From assembly GCA_035540375.1 (NCBI GenBank), contig DATLGO010000101.1, positions 14,324 through 78,323 on the forward strand: DNA of 64,000 bases. Direction: 5' to 3'. A program made the position numbers and the translations under genes. Positions 44,922-61,045 of this stretch are shown here, piece after piece; position 1 is the stretch's first letter; each line of letters begins with the position of its first letter. The notes under the pieces are model-generated. The model made no database searches, was not told the origin of the DNA, and was given only the letters and a program-made list of their open reading frames with translations. This stretch comes from Thermoplasmatota archaeon (lineage in GTDB: Archaea > Thermoplasmatota > SW-10-69-26 > JACQPN01 > JAJPHT01).

Positions 44922-46072
44922 CCGAGGCGGACGACCTCGAGCGGGTCGGCCTCGGCCGCGACGAAGCCGCCGCCTGGGCCGCGCTCGCGCGCGAGGGCCC
45001 GCTCACGGCCCCCGATATCGCCGCGCGCGTGGGCTTCGCCCGGTCGCGCGCCTACGAGGTCCTCCGCGGCCTCGAGGAGCGCGGCCTCGTCGAGGTGCTC
45101 CTCGGCGAGACGCGCCGCTACCGGGCCGTCGCGCTCGACCGCTACGTCGCGGGCGTGCTCGAAGCCGCGCGCGACGCCGAACGGACGGCCCGCGCGCGCC
45201 TCGGCCGCGCCCGCGCGCTCTTCCCCGAGCGCGAAGTCGTGGGCGCGGGCGGACTCGGCGCCGTGCGCGTCGCGGAAGGTCGTCGCGCCGCGCACGAAGC
45301 GTGGGCTCGCCTCCTGCGCGCCGCGAAGGAGAGCGCGCTCATCGTCGCGACGGGCCGCGCGACGCTGCGCTTTCTCGACACCCCCGAAGGCTCGGAGTCC
45401 TACGAAGCCGCGAAGGCGTCCGGCGTCGCCGTCCGCTTCGTGCTGCTTCCGGGCGACGAGCCGGAAGCCGCGCATCGCGCCGCCGAGATCCTCGCCTCCG
45501 ACGCCGAGATCGCCGTTCACGGAGACGGCGCCGTCACGCGGGTCGCGGTGGACGGCGGCCGCGTCGCCGTCGTCGCCCACGAGCGCGACGACGAGCGCGT
45601 GTACCTCGGCAACGACCTCCTCGTCGAGGCCGAATCCGCCGCCCTCGCGACGGACGTGCAGACCGAGGCGGCGCGCATCCTCGAACCCGCCGAGCCCGCG
45701 TTCGCCTTCGCCGGATCGGTCGCGGCGGCGTCGCGCCTGCTCGCCGGCGAGATCCGAGCCGCGCGCGCCGAGATCCTCGTCCTCGTCGGCGCCGGCGGCG
45801 CGTCCTTCGCGGAGGGCTCCGAGGAGCGGCGCGCGCTTCTCGAGGCCTCCGCCCGGGGCGCGCGTGTGCGCGTCGCGACCGCCGGCCCGTCGGACCTGCT
45901 CGGCCTCGTCGAGCCGGCGCTCGCGGACCTCGAAGGCGCCATCGTCATCGCGGACGGGGAGCGCATCGCGGAGTGGTACGGCGGGGCGGGCGCGCCGACC
46001 CTCGCCTTCGTCGCGCGAGACCCTGAACGCGCCCGCCTCGTCGCAAACCGGTTCGACGCGAGCCGCGCGTGA
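44918..46072 (+). CDS. second TrmB-family regulator (tandem paralog)
   Basis: GTG start overlaps the upstream stop (GTGA). HTH LTAPDIAARVGFARSRAYEVLRGLEERGLVE. The first ~1.5 kb of track ORF 43394..46072 is out-of-frame junk. Confidence 0.6.
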   Translation: MTEADDLERVGLGRDEAAAWAALAREGPLTAPDIAARVGFARSRAYEVLRGLEERGLVEVLLGETRRYRAVALDRYVAGVLEAARDAERTARARLGRARALFPEREVVGAGGLGAVRVAEGRRAAHEAWARLLRAAKESALIVATGRATLRFLDTPEGSESYEAAKASGVAVRFVLLPGDEPEAAHRAAEILASDAEIAVHGDGAVTRVAVDGGRVAVVAHERDDERVYLGNDLLVEAESAALATDVQTEAARILEPAEPAFAFAGSVAAASRLLAGEIRAARAEILVLVGAGGASFAEGSEERRALLEASARGARVRVATAGPSDLLGLVEPALADLEGAIVIADGERIAEWYGGAGAPTLAFVARDPERARLVANRFDASRA

Positions 46073-46411: not shown

Positions 46412-47389
46412 GTGTACGTCGACAAGGTCGCGGTCGTCGGCGCCGGAGCCATGGGCGCCGCCATCGCCGAGGTCATGGCGCTCAACGGCAAGAAGGTCGT
46501 CCTGAAGGACGTCTCCCAGGAATTCGTCGACCGCGGCCTCAAGACCATCGATGCGGTGCTCGATGATCTCGTGACCTTCCACGCCGGCAAGGCCGAAGCC
46601 GAGATCGAGCGGATCGAATCGAAGAACGGCATCACGCTCACCGAGGAGCAGAAGGCGAAGGTCCGCGAGGCGAACAAGGCGACCTACGACCGCGCCCGCG
46701 CCGACAAGATCCGCAGGAACATCCAGGGCACGACCTCGTACGACGACCTCGCGGACGTCGACTTCGTGATCGAGGCCGTCGTCGAGAAGATGCCCGTGAA
46801 GCAGCAGGTCTTCAAGGAGCTCGAAGCCGCGACCCAGAGCCACGTCGTGCTCGCGACCAACACGAGCACGCTGAGCATCACGGAGATCGCTTCCGCGGTG
46901 TCGGCGAAGCGCCGTCCGAAGGTGCTCGGCGCGCACTTCTTCAACCCGCCCTACACGCTGCCGCTCGTCGAGATCATCCCCGCCCACGAGACGAGCCCCG
47001 GCGTCGTCGAGGAGACCATCCAGTTCTTCGAGGAGCTGCGCAACCACCGCTTCCCGATGCTTCCGGTCGCCGTCAAGGAGACGCCGGGCTTCGTCGTGAA
47101 CCGCATCCTCGGGCGCGCGTTCAACGAGGCGTTCCTCGTCTACGAGGAGGGGATCGCCTCCCCGCGCGACATCGACAAGGCGATGAAGGCCGGCGCGGGT
47201 TGGCCGATGGGACCGCTCGAGCTCGCCGACCTCGTCGGGATCGACGTGCTCTACCACGCGGGCCGCAGCATGAAGGAGATGGGCGCGCCCGCCGAGCAGC
47301 GCCTGCCCCAGATCATCGGCAAGCTCTACCACTCGGGCCGCTGGGGAAAGAAGGTGGGTCGCGGGTTCTACGATTACAAGAACGAGTAG
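46412..47389 (+). CDS. hbd: 3-hydroxyacyl-CoA (3-hydroxybutyryl-CoA) dehydrogenase
   Basis: NAD-binding VAVVGAGAMGAAIA, catalytic region with …ATNTSTLSITEIA…, and a C-terminal dimerisation domain. Confidence 0.85.
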   Translation: MYVDKVAVVGAGAMGAAIAEVMALNGKKVVLKDVSQEFVDRGLKTIDAVLDDLVTFHAGKAEAEIERIESKNGITLTEEQKAKVREANKATYDRARADKIRRNIQGTTSYDDLADVDFVIEAVVEKMPVKQQVFKELEAATQSHVVLATNTSTLSITEIASAVSAKRRPKVLGAHFFNPPYTLPLVEIIPAHETSPGVVEETIQFFEELRNHRFPMLPVAVKETPGFVVNRILGRAFNEAFLVYEEGIASPRDIDKAMKAGAGWPMGPLELADLVGIDVLYHAGRSMKEMGAPAEQRLPQIIGKLYHSGRWGKKVGRGFYDYKNE

Positions 47390-47496
47390 GTCCCTCAACG
47401 GGCATAGTTGAGGACTGCGCGGGCACTCACAAGGTCCAGTGGACATAGGGATCGTGGTTGAGCCGTTTCCCCGACCGTCCCGCGGCCTCTGAACGG

Positions 47497-48552
47497 CTAG
47501 AACAGGTCCTCGAGCCCACCTTGGAGCTCTGACAGCCCGCCGCATTCAGGGCAGGAGCGTTCATATAGTTCCTCGGTGGCCTTTTCCACGAAGTGATAGA
47601 AGGCGTGATTGAATGCAAGCCCGCACGACTTGCACTCGTAGTCGAGCATGCGAGGTGAAGAATCGCTGATCTTGCGAGTCCGCCGCCCTCGAGAGGGGAC
47701 CGACCGCACAGGCCTTTCGTACTCGAGGCAAGAATGCGAACGCATGTCGCGTTTGGTATCGAATGTTTCACCGCAGCTGTCGCAAGTCGCCGGCTGGCTT
47801 GCCTCCCACTCCCTGTACGCGCGTTGCGCTTCGCGCTCGGAGATCACTGCGGGGCACGCTTGAATGTGGTCCGATAGGGTATCCTCCGAAGCCTGCGCTT
47901 TCCCGCACGCACTGCACGGGTAGTGGCGCTTCGAATAGTTGTGACCACGGAGACCGGCCTCCGAGTCGAACGTCTTTCCGCACAGATCACATGCAAACGA
48001 GGGAACATCCCACGGTTGCACTCGAGCGTCATCAACCTCCGCTTCGACGACCCCCGAGACCTGACGAGCGCCCTCCGCATCGGTTGCGCCTGTCCAGATG
48101 TGCCCGACCGGCTCGACATCATGTATTAGTGCGGGGAGGCTGGCCGCAGCGACACCCTCGGCTGGGGAAGAGCTTACCCCGGCCGGCAGCGCATATCGCG
48201 CCTCGCGCTCGGGCTGAGGACTGCCGAACCCGCACTGACGCGCATGATCATCCCGCCACACCTCTCTTGAGTATTTTGCGCCGCACCCGGGGTAAGGGCA
48301 GACCGAATCCGCCGCTGCCATGTTAACGGACTTAGTAGTGTACGATGGGATAGTGGAGTCCCCGCCCGGGAGGAACGTGTACCCCTTGTGCTTGATGAAG
48401 AGCCAAGGGATCCCGACGTAGAACGTGTAGAAGAACGCCCCAAAGAACGCTCCTGCGACTACGTTCGAATTGAGACTCGCGAGGGCGGGGATGGCAGAAA
48501 TGGCTGCGAAGAACCACTTGTAGCCGTTCCATAACTTGCCCATCTCACGCAC
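47497..48552 (-). CDS. membrane-anchored protein with ~5 C2H2/C2HC-type zinc-finger motifs
   Basis: Two N-terminal TM helices; fingers CPYPGCGAKYSREVWRDDHARQC, CDLCGKTFDSEAGLRGHNYSKRH, CSACGKAQASEDTLSDHIQAC, CDSCGETFDTKRDMRSHSC and CKSCGLAFNHAFYHF, plus CPECGG. Confidence 0.55.
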   Translation of the reverse strand: MREMGKLWNGYKWFFAAISAIPALASLNSNVVAGAFFGAFFYTFYVGIPWLFIKHKGYTFLPGGDSTIPSYTTKSVNMAAADSVCPYPGCGAKYSREVWRDDHARQCGFGSPQPEREARYALPAGVSSSPAEGVAAASLPALIHDVEPVGHIWTGATDAEGARQVSGVVEAEVDDARVQPWDVPSFACDLCGKTFDSEAGLRGHNYSKRHYPCSACGKAQASEDTLSDHIQACPAVISEREAQRAYREWEASQPATCDSCGETFDTKRDMRSHSCLEYERPVRSVPSRGRRTRKISDSSPRMLDYECKSCGLAFNHAFYHFVEKATEELYERSCPECGGLSELQGGLEDLF

Positions 48553-48634
48553 CCCCTCCCCCTAACTGAACCTTGAATATGTAAGCTTGTCCGAAAACTT
48601 GCGTGGGTGTCATCGTTGCCTCGACCCAAGCAGC

Positions 48635-49021
48635 TCACGTTGCAGCGAGCATGACGGACGCGAGTGGCCTTCCCTGGCCCCGATATGCGCTCCGGCGTTC
48701 CTCGGCGAGAGGGTAGCTCGTAATAACCGTCACGAGCTCTCGATCGATCGCAACGACGAAGACGCCGTCCTGCCCAGCGACGTCCACGACCGCGTGCCAC
48801 GCGCCGGCTGGCGCAGGAAAGTAGCGAGCGTGGAGCAGCTTCTGGCGAATCTGCCCTTCGGTCAACCCCGCCCCTTGCCAGCGGGTTGCAGCACGGAATC
48901 GCGCGTGCATCGTCAGGACTACTGCCAGGCTCGCAAAGATTTCGACACTCCAATGGATCGAGGCGAGGTCCCCGAGTGTGGCGACACTCGCGTTGCGGGG
49001 TTCTCGGCGCATACGACTCAC
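48635..49021 (-). CDS. hypothetical protein (weak resemblance to DUF4258-type small toxin domains)
   Basis: …HARYFPAPAGAWHAVVDVAGQDGVFVVAIDRELVTVITSYPL…. Assignment is tentative. Confidence 0.35.
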   Translation of the reverse strand: MSRMRREPRNASVATLGDLASIHWSVEIFASLAVVLTMHARFRAATRWQGAGLTEGQIRQKLLHARYFPAPAGAWHAVVDVAGQDGVFVVAIDRELVTVITSYPLAEERRSAYRGQGRPLASVMLAAT

Positions 49022-50197
49022 CTAAGCGGTACGCCTGCGGTGGCGCGCGACCGCGATGATCGACACCGCAGCGAGCGTGAGGACCAGCACGACGATCAGG
49101 TTGCGCGCGAAGTGCTCGGGAGACATTGCCGTGTCCCCCCAGCACCAACCCCCCGAGCACGGCTGCGTGTTGGAGAGCGTCAAGGCGTTGGTCACGGGCT
49201 CAGTTGTCACAGTCTCGTTTGTGACGGGCGCCCGCCCGTTCGTTCGCTCGCCGGTGAAGAACGGCAGCAATCCAGAGACGTCTTCACCCTCGATGCGGTC
49301 GTACTTGTCGCCGCTGTGATCTTGGAGATCTTGCGTGTACTGGCCCGTCAGCACCTCGGCCTGAACAGTGACGGTCTCTGTGTGCTGCTCGACGCGGTGC
49401 TTGCTCGCCGCGGCCTGGATGATCGGCGGCGTACCGCGCGTGTATCCGCCGTTCGGGCTGCTGCCGGTTGCAAAATCGAGCTCACTCCACTGGTACGCGT
49501 AATTCGAGCCGTTCGGCATGGCGAGCCGGCCTCGCCACACGATCTGCGGAGGGAGGTGATCAAGCTCCAGGACGGCGTAGGCGACGCCCGGCGCGTCCGA
49601 CTGGATGGGGGCGGAGGTCGAGTTCAGCAGCGCACCCTTCGCAGCTTGGGTCCCGCTCCAAGCCTGCAACTCCACGGTCGCTCCTGAAAGGTTCACGCCG
49701 GGGGCCGGCGAAAACAGCAGAGTCAGGGTGTCCGAGCTCCACCCGCGGTTGAAGAGCATCAAGTCTTGGCCGCTCGGGCGGATCGGACTCGCGGTAGGCC
49801 ACGACAGAGAGATGGTGCGCCAAATGAGCCGCCCATCCTGCATGGGTTCAGGGGCGCCAGATATGCTCAGCGCGGGCGCTCCGCGAACGCTGATGATCGC
49901 GGTCAGAACGCCGGCCGCCAGCCCACCAGCATCATCCGGAAGGGTTCCGGTCGCCGTGATCCCTTGCAGCGAGGCGGAGCCCTTGTCCGAGGTAACGCTC
50001 TGCGTGACGCTTCCGACGGAAGCGCCGTTGCGCTCCAAGGTAAGCGTGATGGGCGTAGCAGAGTCGTTCGAGAGGACGACGAGATCCTTCAACGTGACGC
50101 TGAGGTAGACCGGTGCGGCTGTGGTGGTTTGCGCTTGTGCGGGCATGCTCGCAGCGAGCATGAGCAGGATCGAAAGAGTGGGGATGTAGCTCTTCAT
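49022..50197 (-). CDS. secreted Thr/Ser-rich surface protein with a C-terminal TM anchor
   Basis: Signal peptide MKSYIPTLSILLMLAASMPAQA; C-terminal …LIVVLVLTLAAVSIIAVARHRRRTA. 4-nt overlap with the upstream gene. Confidence 0.5.
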   Translation of the reverse strand: MKSYIPTLSILLMLAASMPAQAQTTTAAPVYLSVTLKDLVVLSNDSATPITLTLERNGASVGSVTQSVTSDKGSASLQGITATGTLPDDAGGLAAGVLTAIISVRGAPALSISGAPEPMQDGRLIWRTISLSWPTASPIRPSGQDLMLFNRGWSSDTLTLLFSPAPGVNLSGATVELQAWSGTQAAKGALLNSTSAPIQSDAPGVAYAVLELDHLPPQIVWRGRLAMPNGSNYAYQWSELDFATGSSPNGGYTRGTPPIIQAAASKHRVEQHTETVTVQAEVLTGQYTQDLQDHSGDKYDRIEGEDVSGLLPFFTGERTNGRAPVTNETVTTEPVTNALTLSNTQPCSGGWCWGDTAMSPEHFARNLIVVLVLTLAAVSIIAVARHRRRTA

Positions 50198-50955
50198 GCG
50201 TTTGCCTCCGTGTGCTTGTTGATGTCTTCTGTTAGGCGGCGCTGCCACGTGCGGAACTCCTTCCGGCGGGCGACGCCTTCGTACGTGTCGACGAAGAGGT
50301 GGAGCGGAAATTCCAGGAGCGGAACGATGGACGGGCCGGCGTCGGACGGCTTCGACTCGTCGACGTGGCACCAGGTGACCCACCTGTCCGGCTTGTAGAG
50401 CGAGACGATCGAGCGCACGTGCTCGTTGAACATCCGCTCTCCCTCGCCGGGGCCAGTGACGCCCGCAAATGCCATCACATGCCCCGCGAGGCTCTGTACC
50501 GGCAGGTATCCCCCGACCGTATTTTTCAGGCCGAGCTCTTGGATCTCCTCCTGCGCAAGCATGACGTCCGAGATCGTGCGCTCGTGGAAGGCGATGAAGA
50601 GCGGCGTGTTAAGGCCGAGGTAGCTCGGCGTCTCAGCGGCGCCCTTGCTTCCATCTGCGTTCGAGTCCGCCATCGCCGCGTAGAGCACCTCAAGGATCGG
50701 TCCTTCGACCGCGTCCAACTGCTCCGGAAGCCAAGTGGGGTTCGCGACGATCTGGATGATCGCGCGAGGGTGCTGCGAGAGAAGGCTGGACAGGCAATCC
50801 TGCGTCGTCTGCTGTCTCGTGACGATTGCCCCATCGCCCTTGGAAGGGATTGGGGTGTTGGCCTTGGTCCCGGGCGGCAGGCCTTGAGGCTTCGGCGCGG
50901 TGCGGAGCCGAGCAACGGCTTCGAAGTCATTTGCCTTCGACGTGGAACGGCTCAC
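50194..50955 (-). CDS. hypothetical protein
   Basis: 253 aa of mixed composition; 4-nt overlaps on both sides, consistent with an operon. Confidence 0.45.
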   Translation of the reverse strand: MSRSTSKANDFEAVARLRTAPKPQGLPPGTKANTPIPSKGDGAIVTRQQTTQDCLSSLLSQHPRAIIQIVANPTWLPEQLDAVEGPILEVLYAAMADSNADGSKGAAETPSYLGLNTPLFIAFHERTISDVMLAQEEIQELGLKNTVGGYLPVQSLAGHVMAFAGVTGPGEGERMFNEHVRSIVSLYKPDRWVTWCHVDESKPSDAGPSIVPLLEFPLHLFVDTYEGVARRKEFRTWQRRLTEDINKHTEANA

Positions 50956-51752
50956 GGGACCACCGCCACGAGAGGAGCAGGGTCCGAGCTCTCGCCGCGG
51001 TCATCGCGGGCAGCAGCCAGGCGGTCGCGGGCCTCCTGGTAGAGGAACTGGCTATTCAGCGCCTCGACGAGCTGAGTAGGCGCGCGGCCGTTGACGATGC
51101 CGAAGACCTGCTTGTTCGTGAACGCGGAGTGAAGCTGATTCACGACGTTCGCGTTCGTGAGGCCGTCGATGCTCGCATGGATGACGACGCGCTGAGTGGC
51201 GTCCGCGAACTTGACGATCGGTTCGTGATAATCGCGGGCAGCTCCTTCATGGAGATTGCGCGTCGGTCCGGGCTTCTCACCAGGACGGACTCCCCAGAGC
51301 TCCAGTCGGAGAGGGCTCCACCAGCGGCGAACGCGGATCGCGCGGTTTCCAGGGGCACCGTTGACGGGGAGGACGCCCGCAAGTTGGACTTTCCCGCGGA
51401 GCTTCTTGCCCATCCCCTGCAGATGCCGTTCGAGCCATTGAAGATGGTTCCCTCCGTCGACTATGGTCAACCCGCGCGAAGCGGGCTGGCCGGTGAGGTA
51501 GCGGTCGTAGATGATCCAGATGGTGATCCCCAGAAGCGCAGCCGACCCCCACTCCGCTGCAAGCGTAACCCAGGTCTGGCCGCTCGGGCCGAGCCCCTCG
51601 TAGACGCTGACAAAGGGGGCTGTTAGCTTCTCGAAGTTCTCAGCGACCCAATAGGTGGTGGGCGCGACGATCGCCACCAACAGGACTGCCAGCGCGATGA
51701 TGCGGGCGCGACCCTTCGGGCGGCTCCACGACGTCTTCACATTGTGCAACAT
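50952..51752 (-). CDS. hypothetical membrane protein (first gene of the minus-strand island operon)
   Basis: Two N-terminal TM helices followed by a soluble domain. Confidence 0.45.
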   Translation of the reverse strand: MLHNVKTSWSRPKGRARIIALAVLLVAIVAPTTYWVAENFEKLTAPFVSVYEGLGPSGQTWVTLAAEWGSAALLGITIWIIYDRYLTGQPASRGLTIVDGGNHLQWLERHLQGMGKKLRGKVQLAGVLPVNGAPGNRAIRVRRWWSPLRLELWGVRPGEKPGPTRNLHEGAARDYHEPIVKFADATQRVVIHASIDGLTNANVVNQLHSAFTNKQVFGIVNGRAPTQLVEALNSQFLYQEARDRLAAARDDRGESSDPAPLVAVVP

Positions 51753-51988
51753 GGTATTTCCTCAGCAGCCTCATGTCGTCATGTGCTGCTGGTCGGGAGA
51801 TTGCCTTCGAGAGCATCTTCTGCTTGGCCCTGAGTCACCTATTCTAAAAAGAGCAACGTCCGCCTTGAGTAGGTGCCTACCCTGATCGTACGCCACTCTC
51901 CAGTCGGTAGGCTTGTTCCTATTGAGAATCACTGTTACGAGAATTGTTTTATCCTTCAAACGCCGCTCATCGGTTCGGGAGACAGTAA
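51753..51988. promoter_or_regulatory. AT-rich divergent intergenic region between the two island operons
   Basis: Contains ctattctaaaaagag, gaattgttttatcc, and inverted repeat CAGCAGC-n15-GCTGCTG at 51766-51794 next to the minus-gene start. Confidence 0.35.
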
Positions 51989-52777
51989 GTGGCAGACGAA
52001 CCGGTTCAGGGAGAGGACCGCGGACTCGCGCGGCGTATGCACCGCGACTTTCCCTTCGTCGCTCCAGAAGCCGCACGTGAGCTTGCCATTCGACTCCGTA
52101 AGTCCTCAGTCCCTCGTCCGGACGAAGACCGGCGTCTCGCTCTCGTCCAATTGCTCGGGGATCCGTACCGGGCAAGGCTCATGTCCTTCCTACTGGGCAA
52201 GGCGGAACTCCCGGGCCTGCAGAAGCTTGAGGTCGCCACCACAACCGTTTGGGCGGCCGACATCGCCTCGCTTAGCGCAGGTGTTTTCGGAAGAATCCCG
52301 AACGAGGCTGACCTGCACAAGAGCCTCGTCCAAGTCCTCACATCCTCTCAAATGAAGCACGTTGTCTCGAAAGCGATCGTCCGCGCGCGCGTTCGCATCG
52401 ACGGGGTCGGGGACCCCGAGAACGAAAAGGACGAGCGGAAGAAGCAGCTTCTGAAGGACAAGCTCCGACAAATTAAGGAAACCGCCGACGAGCGAGCCAA
52501 TGAGCGAGTCCCAAAGTTTGCTGCTAAACCGGAGTACGTGAACGCGGTACTGCGCCGAGTCCCGCGGGAAATCGAAGGCGCGTGTTACAAGCAGCTTTGG
52601 GAGCTAAAGCGGGCCGGACTGGTTGACGAGCGATCGAGCCGCTCCGGCGACAGCCTCTGGTACGTCCGACCAGAAGCCGTCGCTGAGCTCGAGGCATTCT
52701 ATACCGCACTCGCGAACCTATCAGGCACCGTACAGCCGGCGCTGTCCACCCGACGAAACTGGAGGAAAGAGCCATGA
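51989..52777 (+). CDS. hypothetical protein with a C-terminal winged-helix-like segment (first gene of plus-strand island operon)
   Basis: …GACYKQLWELKRAGLVDERSSRSGDSLWYVRPEAV… resembles a wHTH. Low-GC codon usage. Start uncertain. Confidence 0.45.
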   Translation: MADEPVQGEDRGLARRMHRDFPFVAPEAARELAIRLRKSSVPRPDEDRRLALVQLLGDPYRARLMSFLLGKAELPGLQKLEVATTTVWAADIASLSAGVFGRIPNEADLHKSLVQVLTSSQMKHVVSKAIVRARVRIDGVGDPENEKDERKKQLLKDKLRQIKETADERANERVPKFAAKPEYVNAVLRRVPREIEGACYKQLWELKRAGLVDERSSRSGDSLWYVRPEAVAELEAFYTALANLSGTVQPALSTRRNWRKEP

Positions 52778-54807
52778 CCGAAGACTTGTTCGCAGCACGC
52801 TGCGCCAAGCTACGCGATCTGACCGAGCAGCTTCGGCGGCTCGTTTCGACTATAGAGGCACTTCGTCCAAACGGCCTCCCAGCCGACTCCGAGGACTTCG
52901 CCCTCACCGGGACCCTTCGAGAGGCCACGCATGAAAACGAGCACTTCCTCCAAGTCAATGATCCGCTTACCCAAGACGCGAAAATGAGTCGGCTTCCGTG
53001 GGCAAAAACACGTCGCGAGCGAGAACTCGCCGAGAATATCGCGGCCACGAACGCAGCGATCATCAAGAGTGAGAAACTAATCGCCGCCGCCCAAAAGGGA
53101 ATTCGCAGACATCTGGAAAGGACTGAAGCCAGGATTGCCAACGCCGCCCGGACCCTCGAGCGGTCCGAGCAAGTCGTACCTGGCTCGCGCTGTGTCCCGC
53201 AACTAAAGGAAACGCTCGAGGCCGCCGCGAACGCTGCACGCCGCGTTCGCGAGGGACACGGAGACGTGGGGGAGTTGGCGCACCTCACAAGCCGAGTCAC
53301 CGAAGGAGTTTCCGGCCTCGATGCCGCCCTCACACTAATCGAGCTCACTCGCTCCGACGCAGCGAAGACCCCCGACCCTCTCGGTGCTGGTCAACGCTTC
53401 CTCGACACGCGGCTCGCGCGTCTACAAGCAGATTCCACGCCGGACGAGCTCCGTGCGAGCGCGACTTCACTCGAAGCCAGTTGGCGAACGGTGAAGGCCG
53501 ATTTCCTGCCGATTCTCACCCGATCCGACGCGGCGGCAGCTCACGCGATCACTGCGGTCGAGTCGCTACCAGGATCGCTCACCGACAACCTGCGCGAGAC
53601 TGCCCTCGCGCTCGCGAGGGAAGTAAAGGCGTTCGACCTCCAGAGTTTCAAACTGAAGAGCGCCCTCGCGACCGCGGAGTGGCTCGACGAAGCCGCGCGG
53701 CAAGCCCCACGCATCAGCGTCATTGCGAACGTCCCAGGCATCGAAGCGTCTCCGGAGTGGCGTACCCTGACGCGCGTCCTCGCCTCTCGCCACCCGCCAG
53801 CCGAAATTGAAGACGCCGTCCGCAAAGCCGAGGACCGGGCAGCGACCATCCAACGGAACTCTGCCGCGGAGCTGCAATTCAAAACAATCCTTGTTAGAGA
53901 ATCCGTGCCGAACGAGTTGGCGAAGGCGGTCGAATCGACAATCGTGCGTCTTTGGGCCCAATTTCCGGAAGCGACGAAAAGCGATGATGCCCAGTTGATT
54001 GAACCGATTTTCAGGGAGATTATTTCGAGCGCTCGCGAGGGCAAGGCATTCCTCATCGAACACGGGGTCGGCCAGTATGCGCCGAACCTGTTCGAAAGCA
54101 TGAACACCTTGCTTGAGCGCCTTCCACACGTTCGGGTGGGAGAAGCGCGGTCCATCTTGAACCGCATGAAGGAGCGAGTTCAACCTCTGCTTGAACTGGA
54201 TCTCGCCAAACGAAAGTTCGCGGCGATTGAGCGCGGCGTGAATAATGACATCTTCATCCAGATCGAAAATGGCATCCTGTCAGGTATCGACATCCAGGAT
54301 ATCCGAGTTGCAACAGAAGCTCTGGTTAAGCTCGCTGACCGATTCGCCAAAGCGCCGCCAGAAATGCTCGCCGAAGAGGAAGGTCGACGGGGCCTCGTCC
54401 GCGCCAACCTCAGCCCCACCCAGCGGAAGAACAGATACCTTTCCGCTCTGATCGAGAACACGCTTCCTGTATTAGCGCGTGACCCGGAACAACCTAAGCG
54501 GAACCGCGACTCGGACCGCGACCGGTTTATAGAGAAAACCTTCCCGATCTACTTCGATCGGGAGGTTCTCGCGGCATGTGTCGGCGCTCGCGGCCCGGCG
54601 GAGTTCGACGCTACCCTCATTCGCGCTCATTCCATCGGCTACGAGCAGTTTAGAGATCGGTTCTACTTCCACCGTGGCCGCGCACGAGCACAGTTCGCAA
54701 AGAACGGGCCTGACTCCGACGCGATCAAGAACCGGCTACGTAAGGAGTTTAGCATCCTCGACTACGAAGCCCTCCAAGAGTGGATCAACGAAGGTGAACC
54801 CAAGTGA
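52774..54807 (+). CDS. large (677 aa) predominantly alpha-helical hypothetical protein
   Basis: ATGA overlap with the upstream gene; no recognisable motifs; heptad-like charged helices. Confidence 0.5.
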   Translation: MTEDLFAARCAKLRDLTEQLRRLVSTIEALRPNGLPADSEDFALTGTLREATHENEHFLQVNDPLTQDAKMSRLPWAKTRRERELAENIAATNAAIIKSEKLIAAAQKGIRRHLERTEARIANAARTLERSEQVVPGSRCVPQLKETLEAAANAARRVREGHGDVGELAHLTSRVTEGVSGLDAALTLIELTRSDAAKTPDPLGAGQRFLDTRLARLQADSTPDELRASATSLEASWRTVKADFLPILTRSDAAAAHAITAVESLPGSLTDNLRETALALAREVKAFDLQSFKLKSALATAEWLDEAARQAPRISVIANVPGIEASPEWRTLTRVLASRHPPAEIEDAVRKAEDRAATIQRNSAAELQFKTILVRESVPNELAKAVESTIVRLWAQFPEATKSDDAQLIEPIFREIISSAREGKAFLIEHGVGQYAPNLFESMNTLLERLPHVRVGEARSILNRMKERVQPLLELDLAKRKFAAIERGVNNDIFIQIENGILSGIDIQDIRVATEALVKLADRFAKAPPEMLAEEEGRRGLVRANLSPTQRKNRYLSALIENTLPVLARDPEQPKRNRDSDRDRFIEKTFPIYFDREVLAACVGARGPAEFDATLIRAHSIGYEQFRDRFYFHRGRARAQFAKNGPDSDAIKNRLRKEFSILDYEALQEWINEGEPK

Positions 54808-56222
54808 CGCATAACGCCGTCATCATGATCGGCCACGGCGGCATTGGCCCAGGCCTTGAGTTCCTCAAGATCATCGACGAGGAACGCAAGCTCGCTGAGA
54901 AGACCGAAACCCAGTTCGTTGACACTTTCTTCCACGAGCTCGATTCGAAAGAAGCTACAAACGAAGGCATTGCCGAACTGGGCGGGACCGTGGTCCCCCG
55001 AGCGGTCGTATTCGATGCTTCCCACCAGACGCGCGTCAAACTGAAGAAGCAAATCAGGGATCAACAGATTCCCTACGTCCGCATCAGAGACCTCGGCCTG
55101 TTGACTCGAGGTTCCGAAAACCAGTGGTGGCTGGGATATCGCATTGCCGCCTTGCAGTTCGGCCCCTGGCTCGAGAACGCCCTCGGAAGTGGGCCGTCGG
55201 GTTGGGAGAACGTTCAGAACTTCCACATCTTCCACAGCACTGGCGGAGGAACTGGCTCTGGCGCATCCTCGTACGTTGCCGAGAAGATCCGTGAACTCCG
55301 GCCAGAGTCTAGAATTCTGTGCTACTCAGTCCTACCATCAGCATACGACGACGTGCACGGGGCCCCCCCACTCGCGCATTACAATACGATTCTGTCCCTC
55401 TCAACCCTGACAGGGCGCCAGCGACCCGAGTTCCTGCCCGACTTTCTCAGGACCGCAACAACCAGCAAAAAGGCAGCAGACCAGGTCGAACTGCCAAAGG
55501 TCGGGAAGCGGCGGCCGGCTGATCTCATCTTCGTGTTCCAAAACGAGGCCTTGGCAGGCGTGAACTCGTTGGTCACCCGCAAAGTCTCCGACAACCTGGG
55601 CGAGCTCAATACGATGATTGGCCGCTACGCATCGCATGTGACCTCGTGTGCGAGGTTTCCCGGCCCGCCGGGTTTCGATGATGAACGCGATATTGGAGAC
55701 ATTGTGACGTGCCTCCTTCGAAAGCCCCAACCATTCGTCATGGCAGCCGCGGCACCCATCGTCCCCGAGTATGAGAAAACCGACGACTCGTCGGTAACGG
55801 AACTCGTTGAGTATGCGCTGAGTTCCATCTATAGCCTGTCCGGGCGTGCTCTATCCCCCGGGGAAGTCGACAGTCTGTACGTCGGCGCCCGAGGCGATGT
55901 GACCCGTGACGAGATGGGAGTTGTTGTTGCAGACGCGCGCTCGCATTTAGGGGTCGGGAAGGAAGTGAAGGTCCCTTTTAACGGCTGCGTGCAACCTTCA
56001 CCCGGCGCCACGCGCGAACTCTGGCTCGCCGCGAATTGTCGGAGCATTGGTCACCTTCTCGGCGAGCTCACCGAGGAAGCCCAGAAGGAGTATGTTGCCG
56101 GCGACCACTCCGATCTCGTCACCGTCGCTATGGAATGGAAGGAACTTGATAGCGTCCTCACTACGTTCCAGGGATTCGCAACCTCTATCCAAAGGGGGGA
56201 ATTGGGACGCCGGCGCAGCTAA
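54804..56222 (+). CDS. divergent tubulin/FtsZ-superfamily GTPase
   Basis: Exact tubulin signature FHSTGGGTGSGASSYVAEKI (T4 loop); glycine-rich N-terminus VIMIGHGGIGPGLEF (T1-like); AVVFDASHQ (T2/NTDxQ-like); LAHYNTILSL (T6-like). No canonical T7 NxDxxD/E. 4-nt overlap with the upstream gene. Confidence 0.6.
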   Translation: MTHNAVIMIGHGGIGPGLEFLKIIDEERKLAEKTETQFVDTFFHELDSKEATNEGIAELGGTVVPRAVVFDASHQTRVKLKKQIRDQQIPYVRIRDLGLLTRGSENQWWLGYRIAALQFGPWLENALGSGPSGWENVQNFHIFHSTGGGTGSGASSYVAEKIRELRPESRILCYSVLPSAYDDVHGAPPLAHYNTILSLSTLTGRQRPEFLPDFLRTATTSKKAADQVELPKVGKRRPADLIFVFQNEALAGVNSLVTRKVSDNLGELNTMIGRYASHVTSCARFPGPPGFDDERDIGDIVTCLLRKPQPFVMAAAAPIVPEYEKTDDSSVTELVEYALSSIYSLSGRALSPGEVDSLYVGARGDVTRDEMGVVVADARSHLGVGKEVKVPFNGCVQPSPGATRELWLAANCRSIGHLLGELTEEAQKEYVAGDHSDLVTVAMEWKELDSVLTTFQGFATSIQRGELGRRRS

Positions 56223-56287
56223 ACGATGATGCGGAGCGGACACTCGACGCTATTAGGCTCGAACGAATCCTAATCGGCGCACTCGCT

Positions 56288-57721
56288 TTGCCGACCCCCT
56301 ATACGTCAATTGGGGACATCGCCACGATCCAATGGGATTTCCTCCTATCTCAATCTCCGAAAGCGATCTCTGCCTCCCGATTGGTAACCCTTAGAAGACG
56401 CGCGAAGTGGAAAATGCGACAGCCTTTCGCGCGGAGGAAGAGGCGCGTGCAACGAGCTCTCGAGTTCTTCACGCCCGCCGTTCGGAATGAGTTTGTGAAA
56501 CAGGGCATAGAAATCGCCGCCCGCATCCTCGGCGCCGAACCGACGTCGCTGCCCCCGGATCTGGAGTTTCGAACCTCAAGTACAATTCGGGAGGAGATCG
56601 CTGCATATCGTAAGGGCTCCCCTAAGCGATGGGCCTCGATCGCCGCACTACGACTCGTCAGCATCGGCGCCAAGGTCCAAATGGAGCGCAGTCGCCCAAG
56701 AGCCGGCGCGAGCTCCAGCAGTGCACAAGTTGAAGGAGAGCTCGTTCGGGCGCAGAAGGCGCACGCAGTTGTAACAAGCGAACTCGCGCGCGTACAGAAC
56801 CTGTATGCAAGCCTCCGTACACAGCACGACGCATTGTGCAGGGTGACTGCGGATGCGCTTCGAGCCCTTGCTCCGGGCGGTCCATGGCAAGACCCGAACG
56901 ACCTCCCAGACGCCGCGCGCCAAGTGCGCAGCGATCTCGAAACGACGACAAGCGAGTTGCAAAGCACGCGAATCCGCCTTTCGGAAACGGATCTGAAGCG
57001 CCAACGTCTCGAGGAAGACCTCCGTCGTAAGGAGGATGCGGCGCGCGCTGCGGCACGTGCACTCGCGGAAGTCAACATCCGCGTTCCGAATGCCGAACAA
57101 GGTATCGAGGCGATTAACGCAGAATTGATGCGCGTGGCATCGGAGGCGCGACAGGCTCGCGGGTGGGCGCCAACGGATCTCGCTGCGTCTATCCGTCCGT
57201 TCATCGCCTTTCACGCCTCCGCCACCAACGCGGACCTTCAGCTCTTACGCTCGGATCTTTCGTTATGGCTCGATCGCGACGTTCAACATGGCCGGCGCCA
57301 GTATGCCTTGTTCGCTCCATTCGCACGCGTTCTCCTACTCTTGCTGGATGAAGCAATGAAGAGTAACGACGCCGCATTAATTGAGACCGTCCGGGCGACC
57401 GCGGCACAGTTCGCGAACATCGAGGCCGATAGCACGCAATTTCTGGGCGGCCGCCCCCCCGAGGAATGGGGATTTACCACTGATGCTATTGCCGTCGCAG
57501 CATTGGGCAGGCCGGGCAGCGTGAAAGAAGTGGAACGTGCGTGCACGGAACTGCGAATGGCGGGAATTTCAGACTTCTTTGACGCGTGGCTTGCGGAGAT
57601 CGAGAAGGTCGAAATGACCAGCGCGGCTGGGCAACGCACTGCTGGCGCCCTTGCACGCGTCGAGCTCGCGCTCCTCGCGCTTCCAAGCGTCCAGAAATAC
57701 GCCCGACGAGGGCTAGGGTAA
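56288..57721 (+). CDS. hypothetical coiled-coil protein (477 aa)
   Basis: Long helical, heptad-rich central region (…LQSTRIRLSETDLKRQRLEEDLRRKEDAARAAARALAEV…). Confidence 0.45.
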   Translation: MPTPYTSIGDIATIQWDFLLSQSPKAISASRLVTLRRRAKWKMRQPFARRKRRVQRALEFFTPAVRNEFVKQGIEIAARILGAEPTSLPPDLEFRTSSTIREEIAAYRKGSPKRWASIAALRLVSIGAKVQMERSRPRAGASSSSAQVEGELVRAQKAHAVVTSELARVQNLYASLRTQHDALCRVTADALRALAPGGPWQDPNDLPDAARQVRSDLETTTSELQSTRIRLSETDLKRQRLEEDLRRKEDAARAAARALAEVNIRVPNAEQGIEAINAELMRVASEARQARGWAPTDLAASIRPFIAFHASATNADLQLLRSDLSLWLDRDVQHGRRQYALFAPFARVLLLLLDEAMKSNDAALIETVRATAAQFANIEADSTQFLGGRPPEEWGFTTDAIAVAALGRPGSVKEVERACTELRMAGISDFFDAWLAEIEKVEMTSAAGQRTAGALARVELALLALPSVQKYARRGLG

Positions 57722-57734
57722 GGAGGGAACGGAC

Positions 57735-58184
57735 ATGGCAGCACAGAACACATCAAGAGACGCATCGAAAACACTTGGACGCGGAGTCCTGATCATGGCG
57801 GGTGTCGCGATCGTACTCCTCATCGGCGCGGCGACTGGCCTCCTCGTCATCCCGAATATCTTTGGTAACTGGTTCACGGACGTCAATGCGGCGCTTCGCT
57901 TCCTGATGTTCTTCGAAATCATCGTATTTATCGCCGGCTGTATCGGCTTCTACTACCTCGCAAATCGGTTCCGGCGCGTGTGGGCTGACGCGGAACTCCT
58001 CCGACTACAGCAGAAGGAAGCGACGATCCGAGTCCAAGAGGCTTTGTCCGCCTTCCAACAGGCCATGAAGGAACTCGAAGCCGCCCGTCATCAACGTCCC
58101 GACCGGCCAGCGGAGATTTCGCCCCTTGCCCCCCGCGTCGGGGCGCTCGAAGCGGCGCTGGCTGAGCTCCGAGCGAAGATCTAA
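57735..58184 (+). CDS. small membrane protein with a C-terminal coiled coil
   Basis: Two TM helices (…VLIMAGVAIVLLIGAATGLLVIP… and FLMFFEIIVFIAGCIGFYYL), then a helical tail. Confidence 0.45.
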   Translation: MAAQNTSRDASKTLGRGVLIMAGVAIVLLIGAATGLLVIPNIFGNWFTDVNAALRFLMFFEIIVFIAGCIGFYYLANRFRRVWADAELLRLQQKEATIRVQEALSAFQQAMKELEAARHQRPDRPAEISPLAPRVGALEAALAELRAKI

Positions 58185-58189
58185 CCACG

Positions 58190-58356
58190 TCGAAGCGCAC
58201 GGTCGCGATCGAAGTCTGACCCGCCTCGTTGCCGGCTTCGAAGGTGGCCGTCACCTCGCCCGCCGAGCGATAGACGTGCTCGAAGGTGGGCGAGGCCTGC
58301 CAGGACGTCGCCTCACCGTCTCCCCACGCGGCGCGCCATTTCGTCGCGGGACCCAT
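58190..58356 (-). pseudogene. remnant of a PKD-domain protein gene at the right edge of the island
   Basis: Minus-strand translation gives …WGDGEATSWQASPTFEHVYRSAGEVTATFEAGNEAGQTSIATVRFDVV (PKD C-terminal pattern). The upstream frame is junk, so the gene is truncated. Confidence 0.25.
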
Positions 58357-58519
58357 GGCTCCGGGACGGGTCGGAAGATCGACGCGGACGTTCGCACCGG
58401 GGGCGGGATAGCGCGAGCCGACGGTCGCCTCGTGCGCGATCGAGGCTCCGGTGCGCGTACGATTGCCGTGTCGCTGCAGAATCTCGATTCCGAGGCGGAT
58501 CTCACGACCCTTGAACCCT

Positions 58520-59512
58520 TTACCCGGTTTTCCCGAAGGCCGGAACGACGCCCACGTAATCCTGGCTCTGACCGTATGCGCCGCCGCGGTTCCCGGTGCA
58601 CTCGACCGAACCCCATCGCAGGAGAACGCACGTACCGCCCCCGCCCGCGCTCACGGCGACCGCGTCGGAGCCGGCGTAGTCCTCGGCGGGGTCGTGGGCG
58701 CCATAACAGTGGATCCGGCCGGAGGCGACGAGCACGCACGTATGGAGACCGCCGGCGCTCACCGCGATCGCATCGCCGCCGAGGTAGTCCCCGACCTGTC
58801 CGTACGGGCCCGACCCGCGGCAGTCGACGTTGCCGGACCGAAGGAGGATGCAGGTGTAGGCGTTCGCCGCGCTGATGGCCACGGCGTCGCCGCCCAGGTA
58901 ATCGTCGCCCTCGCCCCAGCGGTTCGAGCCCCAGCAATCGACGTTTCCCGAGGCGAGGAGCGCGCACGTGTGCGACGCGCCGAGGCTCACGGCGACCGCG
59001 TCGCCCCCTTGGTAGGGTTCGGACTTGCCATCGTGATTGTGTCCCCAGCAGCGCACGTTGCCCGCATCCGTGAGAACGCACGTGTGGTTGCTCGCCGCAT
59101 CGATGGCGACCGCGTCGCCTCCGACGTCATCCTCCGAGGCGCCCTGACGCCACGCCCCGAAGCAGTCGACGTGGCCGCTTCGAAGCAGGATGCACGCGTA
59201 ATGCGCGCCCGCGCTCACGGCGACGGCATCCCCTTCGGAACGATCCTGCGTCTGCCCATAGGCGCTGTAACCATAGCAGTCCACGTCGCCGCTTGCGAGG
59301 AGGACGCAGGTGCTGTGGGACCCGACGGACACCGCGGTCGCCGCGAAGGCGCCCACGCAGATCTGGCCGTCCGACGGCGGAAGCCCGAGGAACGGACCGT
59401 TCGCGCCCTCGACGTAGTCCAACCGGCACACCGAGAGCGTCTCGGGGCTCGCGCCTCCGACCGGCATGAAGGCGGGCGCGACGAGCACGAGGACCGCGGC
59501 GAGTCGGAGCAT
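58520..59512 (-). CDS. secreted RCC1-repeat beta-propeller protein
   Basis: Signal peptide MLRLAAVLVLVAPAFMPVGGASP. At least six repeats of the RCC1 type (…GGDAVAVSxGxxHTCxLLxSGNVDCWGxN…GQ…). Confidence 0.7.
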   Translation of the reverse strand: MLRLAAVLVLVAPAFMPVGGASPETLSVCRLDYVEGANGPFLGLPPSDGQICVGAFAATAVSVGSHSTCVLLASGDVDCYGYSAYGQTQDRSEGDAVAVSAGAHYACILLRSGHVDCFGAWRQGASEDDVGGDAVAIDAASNHTCVLTDAGNVRCWGHNHDGKSEPYQGGDAVAVSLGASHTCALLASGNVDCWGSNRWGEGDDYLGGDAVAISAANAYTCILLRSGNVDCRGSGPYGQVGDYLGGDAIAVSAGGLHTCVLVASGRIHCYGAHDPAEDYAGSDAVAVSAGGGGTCVLLRWGSVECTGNRGGAYGQSQDYVGVVPAFGKTG

Positions 59513-59684
59513 GCAACCCCGCCCATCCACGGCGAAGGGCGCGGATGAGCTTTGCCGGGACAGGGTCTTTCGCGACCCGTCGACGTTTTCGTCGTCCCGT
59601 CGTCGCGACCGCTCCGGGTTTTTACTCCCGGGAGGCGTCCCGAAGCGAAAGTGGTTATGTACCCGCGGGCGCCTCATCCGCCCC

Positions 59685-60479
59685 ATGGCCGACTTCAAGC
59701 TCATCAAGACGAAGCTCGAGGACAACAACGCCATCGGCGTCCTCACGCTCAACGCGCCCCCCGTGAATGCGCTCTCGATCACGCTCCTCAAGGAGATCCA
59801 GGCCGCCCTCGACGAGTTCCAGAAGGCCAAGGTCCGCGCGGTCGTCGTCACGGCCGCGGGCAACAACGCCTTCTGCGCCGGCGCGGACGTGAAGGAGATG
59901 GCCTCGCTCGAGAAGGACCCCGCGAAGGCCGGCGAGTTCCTCGGCCTCGGCAACGAGGTCTTCAACAAGATCGAGAACTTCAACGCCCCCGTCATCGCGG
60001 CCATCAACAACCTGACGCTCGGCGGCGGCCTTGAGCTCGCGCTCGCATGCGACGTCCGCATCTCCTCCGACCGCGCGCGCTTCGGCCTCCCCGAAGTGAG
60101 CCTCGGCCTCATCCCCGCCTGGGGCGGCATCGCGCGCCTTCCGCGCCTCATCGGCGTGGGCCGCGCGAAGGAGCTCATCTTCACCGGCCAGCTCGTGAAC
60201 GCCCAGGAGGCGAAGACACTCGGCATCCTCAACAAGGTCGTCCCGGACGGCGACGAGCTGCGCGCCGCGATGGACATCGCGAAGCGCATCAGCGTCAAGT
60301 CGAGCCCGGTCGCGGTCGCCGCCGCGAAGCGCGCGATCAACGCGGGCATGGGGGAGACGATCGACGTCGCCCTCGCCGCGAGCGAGAAGGAGATGGGCGA
60401 GGTCATGACGAGCGAGGATCTGCGCGAAGGCATCAAGGCGTTCACGGAGAAGCGCCAGCCGAGCTTCAAGGGGCAGTGA
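59685..60479 (+). CDS. enoyl-CoA hydratase (crotonase family)
   Basis: …AVVVTAAGNNAFCAGADVKEM… and …LTLGGGLELALACDVRISS… oxyanion-hole and catalytic segments. Confidence 0.85.
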   Translation: MADFKLIKTKLEDNNAIGVLTLNAPPVNALSITLLKEIQAALDEFQKAKVRAVVVTAAGNNAFCAGADVKEMASLEKDPAKAGEFLGLGNEVFNKIENFNAPVIAAINNLTLGGGLELALACDVRISSDRARFGLPEVSLGLIPAWGGIARLPRLIGVGRAKELIFTGQLVNAQEAKTLGILNKVVPDGDELRAAMDIAKRISVKSSPVAVAAAKRAINAGMGETIDVALAASEKEMGEVMTSEDLREGIKAFTEKRQPSFKGQ

Positions 60480-60642: not shown

Positions 60643-61045
60643 ACCCCCATCCAGACCCGCGTTTGATTCTCGAACCACGTTACCTACCTTACGCGCGCCC
60701 TTCGCGTGCGGTGCGGGGGCCCTCAGGGCTGCCTCTCGCGACAGTGAAATTGTGAAACCCGGGCGCGATCACCGGCTGCGGTCCCGCACCCGGTCCCGAC
60801 ACCCGAGCCCCGATGTCACGAGGCGCCCTTGATACCACGGCCGCGTCGCGCGATCGCAGTCGTCGCGCGCGCCGCGCCGCGGGCGTGCGCTGCTCCGGCG
60901 TTTGTTCCAGGGCGAGGTTGAAGGGTCACGGACGCGGGGCCGCGCGCGTCACGCGGCGCACTCGTTCCATCGGCCGCACAGGGCGATGCTCGGACGATAT
61001 GAAGTAGCGAGAGAGTACAAAACCTCTAGAGACGTTGAGGGGCGC

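Follow-up and report, generated by a model that had tools for sequence, protein, structure and literature searches.

A divergent tubulin-family gene with candidate partner genes on an acquired genomic island in a Thermoplasmatota archaeon

Eukaryotic-type tubulins are very rare in prokaryotes, where they are represented by BtubA/B, OdinTubulin, the AtubA/B/C proteins of Asgard archaea and the disputed artubulins, and each of these finds has shaped views on the origin of microtubules (PMC9871819, PMC13394414). Surveys of FtsZ and tubulin homologs have covered Odinarchaeota, other Asgard archaea and Prosthecobacter, together with artubulins and CetZ-like groups (PMC9871819, 2023; PMC13394414, 2026), and neither of the two mentions a tubulin in Thermoplasmatota. 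Here we describe a 64,000-nt stretch of DNA (the window) from the metagenome-assembled genome of an uncultured, high-GC Thermoplasmatota archaeon (GCA_035540375.1, contig DATLGO010000101.1, positions 14,324-78,323 of the forward strand), in which a gene for a 472-aa tubulin-family GTPase (54804-56222, plus strand) lies on a segment of low G+C (GC) content. This 10.8-kb segment, at 47390-58185 of the window, is a horizontally acquired genomic island, and both the insertion and its foreign composition are directly observed. As a genomic island it is ordinary apart from the absence of mobility genes, and the unusual part is its cargo. The reading that we favour, and hold to be rather probable, is that of an acquired, non-self-mobile island whose rightward operon encodes a membrane-tethered tubulin filament module.

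The tubulin domain, already recognised in an earlier reading of the DNA made from the sequence alone (the sequence-only reading), is backed by a match to the Pfam Tubulin/FtsZ family PF00091 (E = 1.6e-16, 61.6 bits against a cut-off of 33). Searched as a single sequence against the PDB, the protein finds OdinTubulin (7EVB) first, at E = 7.4e-22 and in an alignment that covers the C-terminal domain as well as the GTPase domain, followed by BtubB (4.6e-14), eukaryotic beta-tubulins (about 1e-12) and Lokiarchaeal AtubA (4e-11). A profile built only from the three members of its own family (see below) gives Odin at 7.8e-37, BtubB at 2.7e-33, AtubA at 2.6e-29 and beta-tubulin at 5e-29, with only 172 PDB sequences at E <= 10. 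In both searches the best 60 matches are all tubulin, Btub, Odin or Atub, and none of these 60 is FtsZ, CetZ or TubZ. Judged by these rankings, the protein is closer to tubulins proper than to FtsZ, CetZ or TubZ. It also has a tubulin-type C-terminal region with the H11-H12 surface helices. Its AlphaFold2 model (pLDDT 77.9, pTM 0.87) superposes on OdinTubulin with template-modelling (TM) scores of 0.79/0.88 and is matched only loosely by viral predicted structures (TM 0.42-0.52).

The tubulin fold is accompanied by the nucleotide-binding motifs. The T4 motif GGGTGSG occupies residues 147-153 and is invariant in the family alignment from G148 on, the first G being Ala in the relative P0002. Other motifs that are kept include the T3 Asn followed by WW, the T5 Asp, (P/H/Y)YN, F(D/Q)NEAL, ELN and RFPG. 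In the T7 loop, R295-D296-I297-x-D299 is invariant in the three members and, in the alignment, corresponds to the tubulin pattern N-x-D-L-x-(E/K), its acidic residues falling on D251 and E254 of alpha-tubulin. Because these acidic residues are kept, the family looks competent for self-activated GTP hydrolysis in a homopolymer, a prediction drawn from the aligned residues. A family-specific insertion of about 30 aa follows H5 (residues ~203-238); it is rich in basic residues (KK, KRR), is modelled at pLDDT <50, and recurs in shorter form in P0002, P0003 and the more distant P0050 with the motif LLGK/LLGN. As a loop it may serve to bind a partner or the membrane. The tail at the C-terminus is basic instead of acidic.

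OdinTubulin (Odinarchaeota, PDB 7EVB; Akil et al. 2022, as cited in PMC13394414) is 23-25% identical to the window tubulin and differs from it in several respects. Its T1 loop reads GQGGNQ where the window protein has GHGG, and the post-H5 insertion is specific to the window family. The Odin host is an Asgard archaeon and the present one belongs to Thermoplasmatota, and here the gene sits on an acquired island with dedicated partners. The Prosthecobacter BtubA and BtubB, which occur with BtubC, are encoded by a tandem A/B pair, whereas a single tubulin gene is found here, and the identity of the window tubulin is far lower than that of Btub to eukaryotic tubulin. BtubC is a tetratricopeptide-repeat (TPR) accessory protein, whereas the window partners o677, o477 and o149 show no TPR or kinesin-light-chain Pfam match and no detected similarity to a known family. 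The Asgard AtubA/AtubB/AtubC are mini-microtubule tubulins (PMC13394414). In Asgard genomes the Atub genes are paired in tandem (A/B), and they group inside or beside the eukaryotic tubulins, whereas the window family is a singleton gene, much more divergent and outside the Asgard archaea. The artubulins of Nitrosoarchaeum (Yutin and Koonin 2012, as discussed in PMC9871819 and PMC13394414) are comparable in being rare, long-branch archaeal tubulin-like proteins with a patchy distribution and uncharacterised coiled-coil neighbours, for which lateral gene transfer has also been suggested. They are set apart, by their description, through a thaumarchaeal host and a link to Snf7/ESCRT-III genes; the window operon has no Snf7 and its host is Thermoplasmatota.

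The family is exceedingly small. A word-indexed search of 5.8 billion protein clusters returned only the tubulin itself. When 1.84 billion representatives of about 15 billion proteins were scanned exhaustively with HMMER, two real relatives emerged, P0002 (36% identity, E = 2e-55) and P0003 (36% identity, E = 4e-43), both unnamed singletons that each come from a single metagenome contig; everything else stood at E >= 9e-18, the level of generic tubulins. The family thus has three clear members among some 15 billion public proteins. P0050, an orphan from JGI data, is more distant (25% identity over the full length); it shares the family insertion and has a degenerate T4 motif (AAGTGSG). For neither the tubulin nor its partner o477 was a homolog found in any other Thermoplasmatota genome among these billions of proteins.

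A bootstrapped neighbour-joining tree was built from Kimura-corrected identity distances; it comprised 37 tubulin representatives and E. coli FtsZ as sole outgroup, without CetZ or TubZ. In this crude tree the family is recovered in 89/100 replicates and joined to P0050 (71/100) and to the Bathyarchaeota sequence P0013/P0167 (MBT4422911.1). The family, P0050 and P0013 fall outside the cluster of eukaryotic, Odin-like and BtubA-like sequences, and the window family does not come out as the sister group of the Odin-like sequence. The branches are long and the one outgroup is distant, so that this placement may well reflect long-branch attraction.

The tubulin gene is one of five in the rightward operon, in the order o262, o677, tubulin, o477, o149. 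Overlaps of 4 nt join o262 to o677 (ATGA) and o677 to the GTG start of the tubulin gene (GTGA), the tubulin gene is translationally coupled to o677, and 13 nt separate o477 from o149. The relative P0003 is encoded on a 10.2-kb contig (L003, from SRR28285715; uniform 60% GC) with the gene order 510 aa, 704 aa, tubulin, 444 aa, 172 aa, AAA ATPase, 512 aa, so that a tubulin 36% identical to ours is found there with o477- and o149-type partners, and tentatively an o677-type one, in the same order. The coiled-coil protein o477 (56288-57721, plus strand; start at TTG 56288 or ATG 56414) has a conserved C-terminal domain and is homologous to the L003 444-aa protein (E = 1e-19, 29% identity over the C-terminal 249 aa); its other matches are weak, of coiled-coil type, and to SMC and DndD only. 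The last island gene, o149 (57735-58184, plus strand), encodes a membrane protein with a cytoplasmic coiled-coil tail and is homologous to the 172-aa protein of L003 (E = 5e-13), with two transmembrane helices in each. On these protein similarities, the tubulin-o477-o149 gene set is conserved in two unrelated contigs. The large alpha-helical orphan o677 (52774-54807, plus strand) holds the same position upstream of the tubulin gene as the 704-aa protein in L003 and is its tentative homolog (BLASTP E = 0.006, 23% identity over 359 colinear residues), the global alignment including a conserved N-terminal segment.

The first gene of the operon, o262 (51989-52777, plus strand), encodes a basic protein, possibly a DNA binder of the winged-helix type. 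Its single-sequence AlphaFold2 model reaches a pLDDT of only 48, and the one better-modelled part is a helix/beta-hairpin/helix at the C-terminus (pLDDT 61-78). No Pfam match was found for it even at E <= 10, no helix-turn-helix, and no similarity to the gene upstream in L003.

Two side observations concern these genes. On the identical Logan contig L001, the gene caller placed a 284-aa Arg/Ser/Ala-rich open reading frame (ORF) on the minus strand across o477 (window 56350-57204; L001:11547-12401). Since o477 is homologous to the L003 protein, the plus-strand gene is real and the minus-strand call spurious, an example of antisense mis-calling in high-GC DNA. In L003, the region past the o149 homolog (L003:7461-10135) encodes a single-domain classical AAA ATPase of Cdc48-D2/CdvC-like type (PF00004 E = 1e-35; PDB Cdc48 E = 1e-73) and a membrane protein with ten transmembrane helices that ends the contig. 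Because the island ends right after o149, the counterparts of these two genes are either missing here or were never transferred.

The polymerisation, partner binding, membrane tethering and cellular role that we infer would fit together as follows. The tubulin would bind GTP and polymerise head-to-tail into homopolymeric protofilaments, the acidic T7 loop completing the active site of the neighbouring subunit and so allowing filament turnover. The coiled-coil o477, probably with the helical o677, would link the filaments to the two-transmembrane-helix protein o149 in the cytoplasmic membrane, and o262 would probably be a local regulator of the operon. The outcome would be a dynamic filament, tethered to the membrane, with a role in shaping or organising the envelope. 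The leftward operon, which encodes membrane and surface proteins, could be co-cargo or an independent acquisition.

The island lies between two fatty-acid genes that are normally neighbours: hbd, encoding 3-hydroxyacyl-CoA dehydrogenase (46412-47389, plus strand; Pfam 3HCDH_N/3HCDH on an identical contig), and crt, encoding an enoyl-CoA hydratase/crotonase (59685-60479, plus strand; Pfam ECH_1 E = 8e-62). The sequence-only reading had placed the end of hbd and the start of crt at these same positions and had proposed that a low-GC island of about 11 kb splits the pair. GC, GC at third codon positions (GC3), best-phase GC and tetranucleotides are all atypical in this region, and the quantitative analysis, with sliding GC and tetranucleotide frequencies both non-uniform, favours an island. 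Sliding-window GC is 0.56-0.66 across ~47.3-58.2 kb; in 2-kb windows it is 0.69-0.79 window-wide and falls to 0.58-0.65 at 46-58 kb, the remainder of the window being at ~0.72. The contrast therefore stands as had been claimed; the value of 55-60% GC then given for the insert does not, the measured one being 58-65%. Overall GC underrates the contrast because hbd itself has only 0.66, due to its amino-acid content. GC3 is 0.95 in hbd and 0.97 in crt, against 0.70 (zinc-finger gene), 0.80 (Thr-rich), 0.82 (o253) and 0.79 (o266) in the left operon and 0.68 (o262), 0.67 (o677), 0.69 (tubulin), 0.64 (o477) and 0.69 (o149) in the right one, values that cover nine of the ten island genes, o125 being left out. 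Averaged over 300-nt windows, best-phase GC is 0.900 +/- 0.065 beyond the island but 0.718 +/- 0.059 along an unbroken 10.8 kb. The fall comes at the hbd stop codon (47389) and the return between 58.2 and 58.65 kb; where low values occur elsewhere in the 64 kb, they are confined to single intergenic or tRNA spots. Measured against the rest of the window, the tetranucleotide distance of island sequence is 0.42-0.56, and that of sequence outside it 0.14-0.25. Composition-normalised tetranucleotide z-scores correlate with the host at r = 0.45 for the left half and r = 0.27 for the right half, where a host segment of matching size (4.4 kb) gives r = 0.69 and the two large host halves r = 0.85. At the left junction, a 107-nt spacer (47390-47496) runs from the hbd stop to the stop of the zinc-finger gene, and best-phase GC falls there from 0.93 to 0.66.

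Comparison with related genomes points the same way. Orthologs of hbd are 48-77% identical in Thermoplasmatota metagenome-assembled genomes (hbd protein against one genome per GTDB species), and we measured hbd-crt spacing in relatives by tblastn of window proteins onto their loci. The two genes are 116 bp apart in L004 (hbd 75%, crt 66% identity), 88 bp in L005 (70%, 66%), 54 bp in L007 (56%, 55%) and, as in L005, 88 bp in L023 (a JGI metagenome contig, 70%). In the window the distance is 12.3 kb. Empty sites of 54-116 bp are thus what the relatives show, not a conserved gene order, and none of the island genes was found at the hbd-crt loci of L004, L005, L007 and L023. Since crt also lies beside hbd in several bacterial loci, as in the related ones, we take adjacency to be the ancestral state. 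It could be argued that the region is ancestral and vertically inherited, that the relatives lost it, and that its atypical composition is functional, through low expression or a membrane bias. The lack of mobility genes, tRNA and att repeats would agree with such a history, as would the fact that the available relatives are only 56-77% identical in hbd, with no close kin among them. It would nevertheless require several independent precise losses, given the adjacency of hbd and crt in three distinct Thermoplasmatota lineages and in bacteria. The GC3 deficit of 0.15-0.30 extends over ten consecutive genes, soluble proteins included, so that a membrane bias is no explanation, and among billions of proteins no homolog of the tubulin or o477 was found elsewhere in the phylum. 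We consider vertical inheritance highly improbable.

An abrupt change of composition in a metagenome-assembled genome could equally reflect a foreign contig mis-joined during assembly or binning. However, the window is matched at 100% identity by four further contigs, which derive from four samples and two pipelines: L001, L020, L021 and L022, with Logan SRR8438988 and SRR8438992 and the MEGAHIT-style ENA contigs ERZ27256751 and ERZ27256749 as sources. Three of them (L001, L020, L021) span both junctions, and the match of L022 lies within the tubulin operon. A chimeric join is therefore very unlikely, to the point of being negligible. With all four contigs at 100% identity there is no strain polymorphism to exploit for a test of selection.

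The extra DNA relative to the related genomes is larger than the island. It measures 12.3 kb (47390-59684) and is made of two layers, the low-GC island (47390-58185) and a gene for an RCC1-repeat protein with a PKD fragment (58186-59512). The proposed insert of about 11 kb agrees with the 10.8-kb island, and the full extra DNA includes the RCC1 gene. The limits of 47400-58520 given earlier for the island fit on the left; on the right, low GC stops at ~58185, at the o149 stop, and 58186-58520 is a host-like PKD fragment. The RCC1-repeat secreted protein (58520-59512, minus strand, 330 aa) has six repeats (Pfam RCC1_2 E = 8e-36), a signal peptide and 17 Cys; its gene is host-like in composition (GC3 0.86), gave no tblastn match in L004-L009 and is absent from the hbd-crt spacer of the relatives. 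The PKD-domain fragment (58186-58440, minus strand) lies directly 3' of the RCC1 gene in another frame, which is open from 58650. It has neither start codon nor signal peptide, its GC3 in the PKD frame is 0.79, and it is the remnant of a host-like surface-protein gene. The truncated PKD remnant that the sequence-only reading had recognised at the right edge is borne out by Pfam (PKD E = 2e-6), with the homology cut exactly at the o149 stop codon (58184), the same place as the composition switch. That the RCC1 gene is also extra suggests two or more insertions in the hbd-crt spacer, which appears to be a repeatedly used insertion site. Most likely an RCC1-PKD surface-protein gene entered the spacer first, and the low-GC DNA then landed in, or replaced, its 3' part.

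How the island arrived left few marks at its edges. In agreement with what had been noted from the sequence, the edges show no integrase, transposase, tRNA or direct repeats. Our search for att-like direct or inverted repeats at the island edges gave chance-level matches only, and nothing at the right edge pairs with the left junction as a repeat. In relatives, the sequence between hbd and crt is too diverged to align with the window junctions, and for this reason the left junction is not placeable to the base. Only two tRNAs occur in the window, at 8207 and 62838. The second, tRNA-Gln(CTG) (62838-62916, minus strand), is not the integration site, being 4.6 kb from the island edge with host-like genes between. 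Among the island proteins, Pfam, NCBIfam, PHROGs and PADLOC revealed no integrase or transposase and nothing for replication, capsid or conjugation, and on this ground the island is not self-mobile at present. A perfect hairpin with a 6-bp stem (ctcaac-gggcata-gttgag, 47395-47413) was seen at the left junction, 6 nt past the hbd stop; it may mark the end of a transcript or be left over from recombination.

Foreign DNA without housekeeping genes also suits a decayed integrated plasmid or virus. The tubulin would then be a DNA-partition or positioning motor like those of TubZ-TubR-tubC, the type III plasmid partition system, or phage PhuZ, with o262 as DNA-binding adaptor and o477/o677 as TubY-like accessories. 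These systems share with the window a tubulin-superfamily GTPase on mobile DNA and a small upstream protein in the operon, and the basic o262, with its possible winged-helix C-terminus, is encoded in the tubulin operon. The patchy distribution of three members fits a mobile element. Archaeal viruses often encode C2H2 zinc-finger proteins, and the zinc-finger protein of the leftward operon has a weak PHROG zinc-finger match (E = 3e-4). However, the window GTPase is not of TubZ or PhuZ type and is far from both in the comparisons above, no tubC-like iterons lie beside the operon, and neither the island nor L003 carries a replicon, integrase or structural gene. The conserved partners are membrane proteins, not DNA binders. 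The search of plasmid and virus databases that had been suggested for the island proteins gave no viral, plasmid or defence matches among those tested: tblastn against plasmids returned nothing for the tubulin, o677 and o266, tblastn against phages nothing for the tubulin, o253 and the Thr-rich protein, and scans of IMG/VR (tubulin family alignment and o266) and of JGI metagenomes (family alignment) were equally empty. We regard this origin as unlikely.

More weight attaches to a mosaic reading, in which two or more unrelated acquisitions reached an insertion hot spot, and the left and tubulin operons came separately and are functionally unconnected. The halves differ in GC3 (~0.80 left, ~0.67 right, except for the zinc-finger gene at 0.70) and in tetranucleotide signature, with a mutual r of 0.13, and this mismatch makes a mosaic origin possible. 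The split is between 0.79-0.82 in o266, o253 and the Thr-rich gene and 0.64-0.69 in the tubulin operon. Left-operon genes have no homologs on L003 or L002, the contigs of related tubulin loci, and the RCC1-PKD layer indicates that the spacer accepted DNA more than once. Against this, one divergent promoter region serves both operons with no remnant sequence between them, the far-left zinc-finger gene has the same GC3 as the tubulin operon, and segments of 4-6 kb give noisy signatures. We see such a mosaic as possible rather than probable; it is compatible with our explanation of the tubulin operon.

The membrane-tethered filament module that we favour has several points to its disadvantage. 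The homology of o677 to the L003 704-aa protein is weak, and o477 of the window has no obvious transmembrane helix, unlike its L003 homolog, which has one at its N-terminus. The neighbours on the 2.4-kb contig L002 (ERZ27297438) are not detectably homologous to the island partners, so that the module is confirmed in two loci only. Within the tubulin itself, Pfam Tubulin_C was not detected, and the T1 loop is GHGG (family pattern G-H-(G/A)-G-(I/V/S)-(G/W)) instead of GQxGNQ, so that nucleotide handling may differ. The alignment used for the AlphaFold2 prediction contained canonical tubulins, which may bias the ranking of folds; the structural ranking is for this reason not fully independent, whereas the sequence ranking is. 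The island halves, given their difference in GC3 and signature, may not form one functional unit. Finally, neither tetranucleotide signature nor relative synonymous codon usage (RSCU) led to a donor: the island is unlike both L003 and L002, and L003 resembles it in GC and GC3, but with an oligonucleotide signature of r = 0.04.

With this locus, a phylum for which no tubulin had been reported gains a very divergent tubulin-like lineage, carried on an acquired island together with conserved partners, a membrane anchor among them. Should the protein polymerise, it would offer a minimal tubulin-plus-anchor system for experiments and direct evidence of horizontal movement of tubulin modules among archaea. 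Going further, we put forward, as a tentative idea, that the family (three members, four with P0050) might be an unrecognised lineage of bona fide polymerising tubulins outside Asgard archaea, Verrucomicrobia and eukaryotes, moving between archaea as a tubulin-adaptor-anchor cassette. If so, a tubulin proper with its own partner set would be part of the archaeal mobile gene pool, and accounts that place the origin of microtubules in Asgard archaea would have to weigh horizontal transfer.

Two other archaeal loci were noted in the course of this comparison. In a Bathyarchaeota genome (GCA_018701795.1, 36% GC), L033:1-6293 carries an orphan archaeal tubulin-like gene, MBT4422911.1 (P0167), with a canonical GQCGNQ T1 loop, in an operon that reads AAA ATPase, 182 aa, 440 aa, tubulin, 606 aa. 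With P0050 it is the nearest neighbour of the window family in the crude tree, and its operon resembles L003 in ingredients, with an AAA ATPase and large orphans. Extending the module to this operon was rejected, as its partners have no sequence homology to o677, o477 or o149. The pairing of a tubulin with an AAA ATPase may be a recurring one in archaea. The second locus, L030:4001-5290 (JGI Ga0620986_00832, a 240-kb contig), encodes a 429-aa 'tubulin gamma' with the T1 loop GKCGILLG, from a cluster of 20 members (P0009/P0156). Its neighbourhood is that of an ordinary archaeal chromosome (proteasome, Nop5, DnaG primase, SMC, diphthamide synthase). With this chromosomal context and no Snf7 nearby, the assignment of the cluster to the artubulins was not adopted.

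The remaining island genes form the leftward operon. The ten ORFs had been described as two divergent operons, and they are indeed tightly packed, five on the minus and five on the plus strand. The operons diverge from an intergenic region (51753-51988) that holds both promoters and has the lowest local GC (0.57), with AT-rich, TATA-like stretches; no iterons were found there, the only repeats in 51700-52050 being two weak 2-copy ones. On the minus strand, the first gene is o266 (50952-51752), an orphan with an N-terminal transmembrane anchor (residues 18-36) and no match in Pfam, plasmids or IMG/VR. It is followed by o253 (50194-50955), a soluble orphan that overlaps both neighbours by 4 nt and gave no family match in Pfam, PHROGs, NCBIfam and PADLOC and none in phages by tblastn, and by a gene for a Thr/Ser-rich surface protein of 391 aa (49022-50197; T+S 20%), the start of which overlaps the o253 stop. 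The latter protein has a C-terminal transmembrane helix (366-384) and no family or phage match; its N-terminal hydrophobic leader, below the hydropathy threshold used, is read as a putative signal peptide. The small basic orphan o125 (48635-49012), called on the identical contigs too, has no Pfam, PHROG or PADLOC match. A Pfam scan at E <= 10 of o262, o266, o253 and o125 was likewise without matches, and all leftward proteins save one are orphans in every library tried. That one, encoded after an 82-nt gap at 47497-48552 (351 aa, with an alternative ATG at 48543), is a membrane protein that combines C2H2-type zinc fingers with a zinc ribbon and has a single hydrophobic helix at residues 35-53 and 15 Cys. 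The C2H2 assignment made from the sequence holds in Pfam (zf-met E = 3.4e-7, zf-C2H2_6 E = 1e-6, both above cut-off), and in PHROGs, PADLOC and NCBIfam the protein otherwise has only weak zinc-finger or zinc-ribbon matches.

Outside the extra DNA, we noted below the Pfam cut-off a weak match to the uracil-DNA-glycosylase superfamily (UDG E = 1e-4) in a protein encoded downstream of crt (60902-61837, plus strand). Just upstream of hbd, where local GC is 0.77-0.81, two tandem, overlapping genes of 671 and 384 aa (42906-46072, plus strand), neither found near hbd in relatives, encode regulators of the TrmB family (Pfam TrmB E = 1e-16 and 1e-15, respectively).

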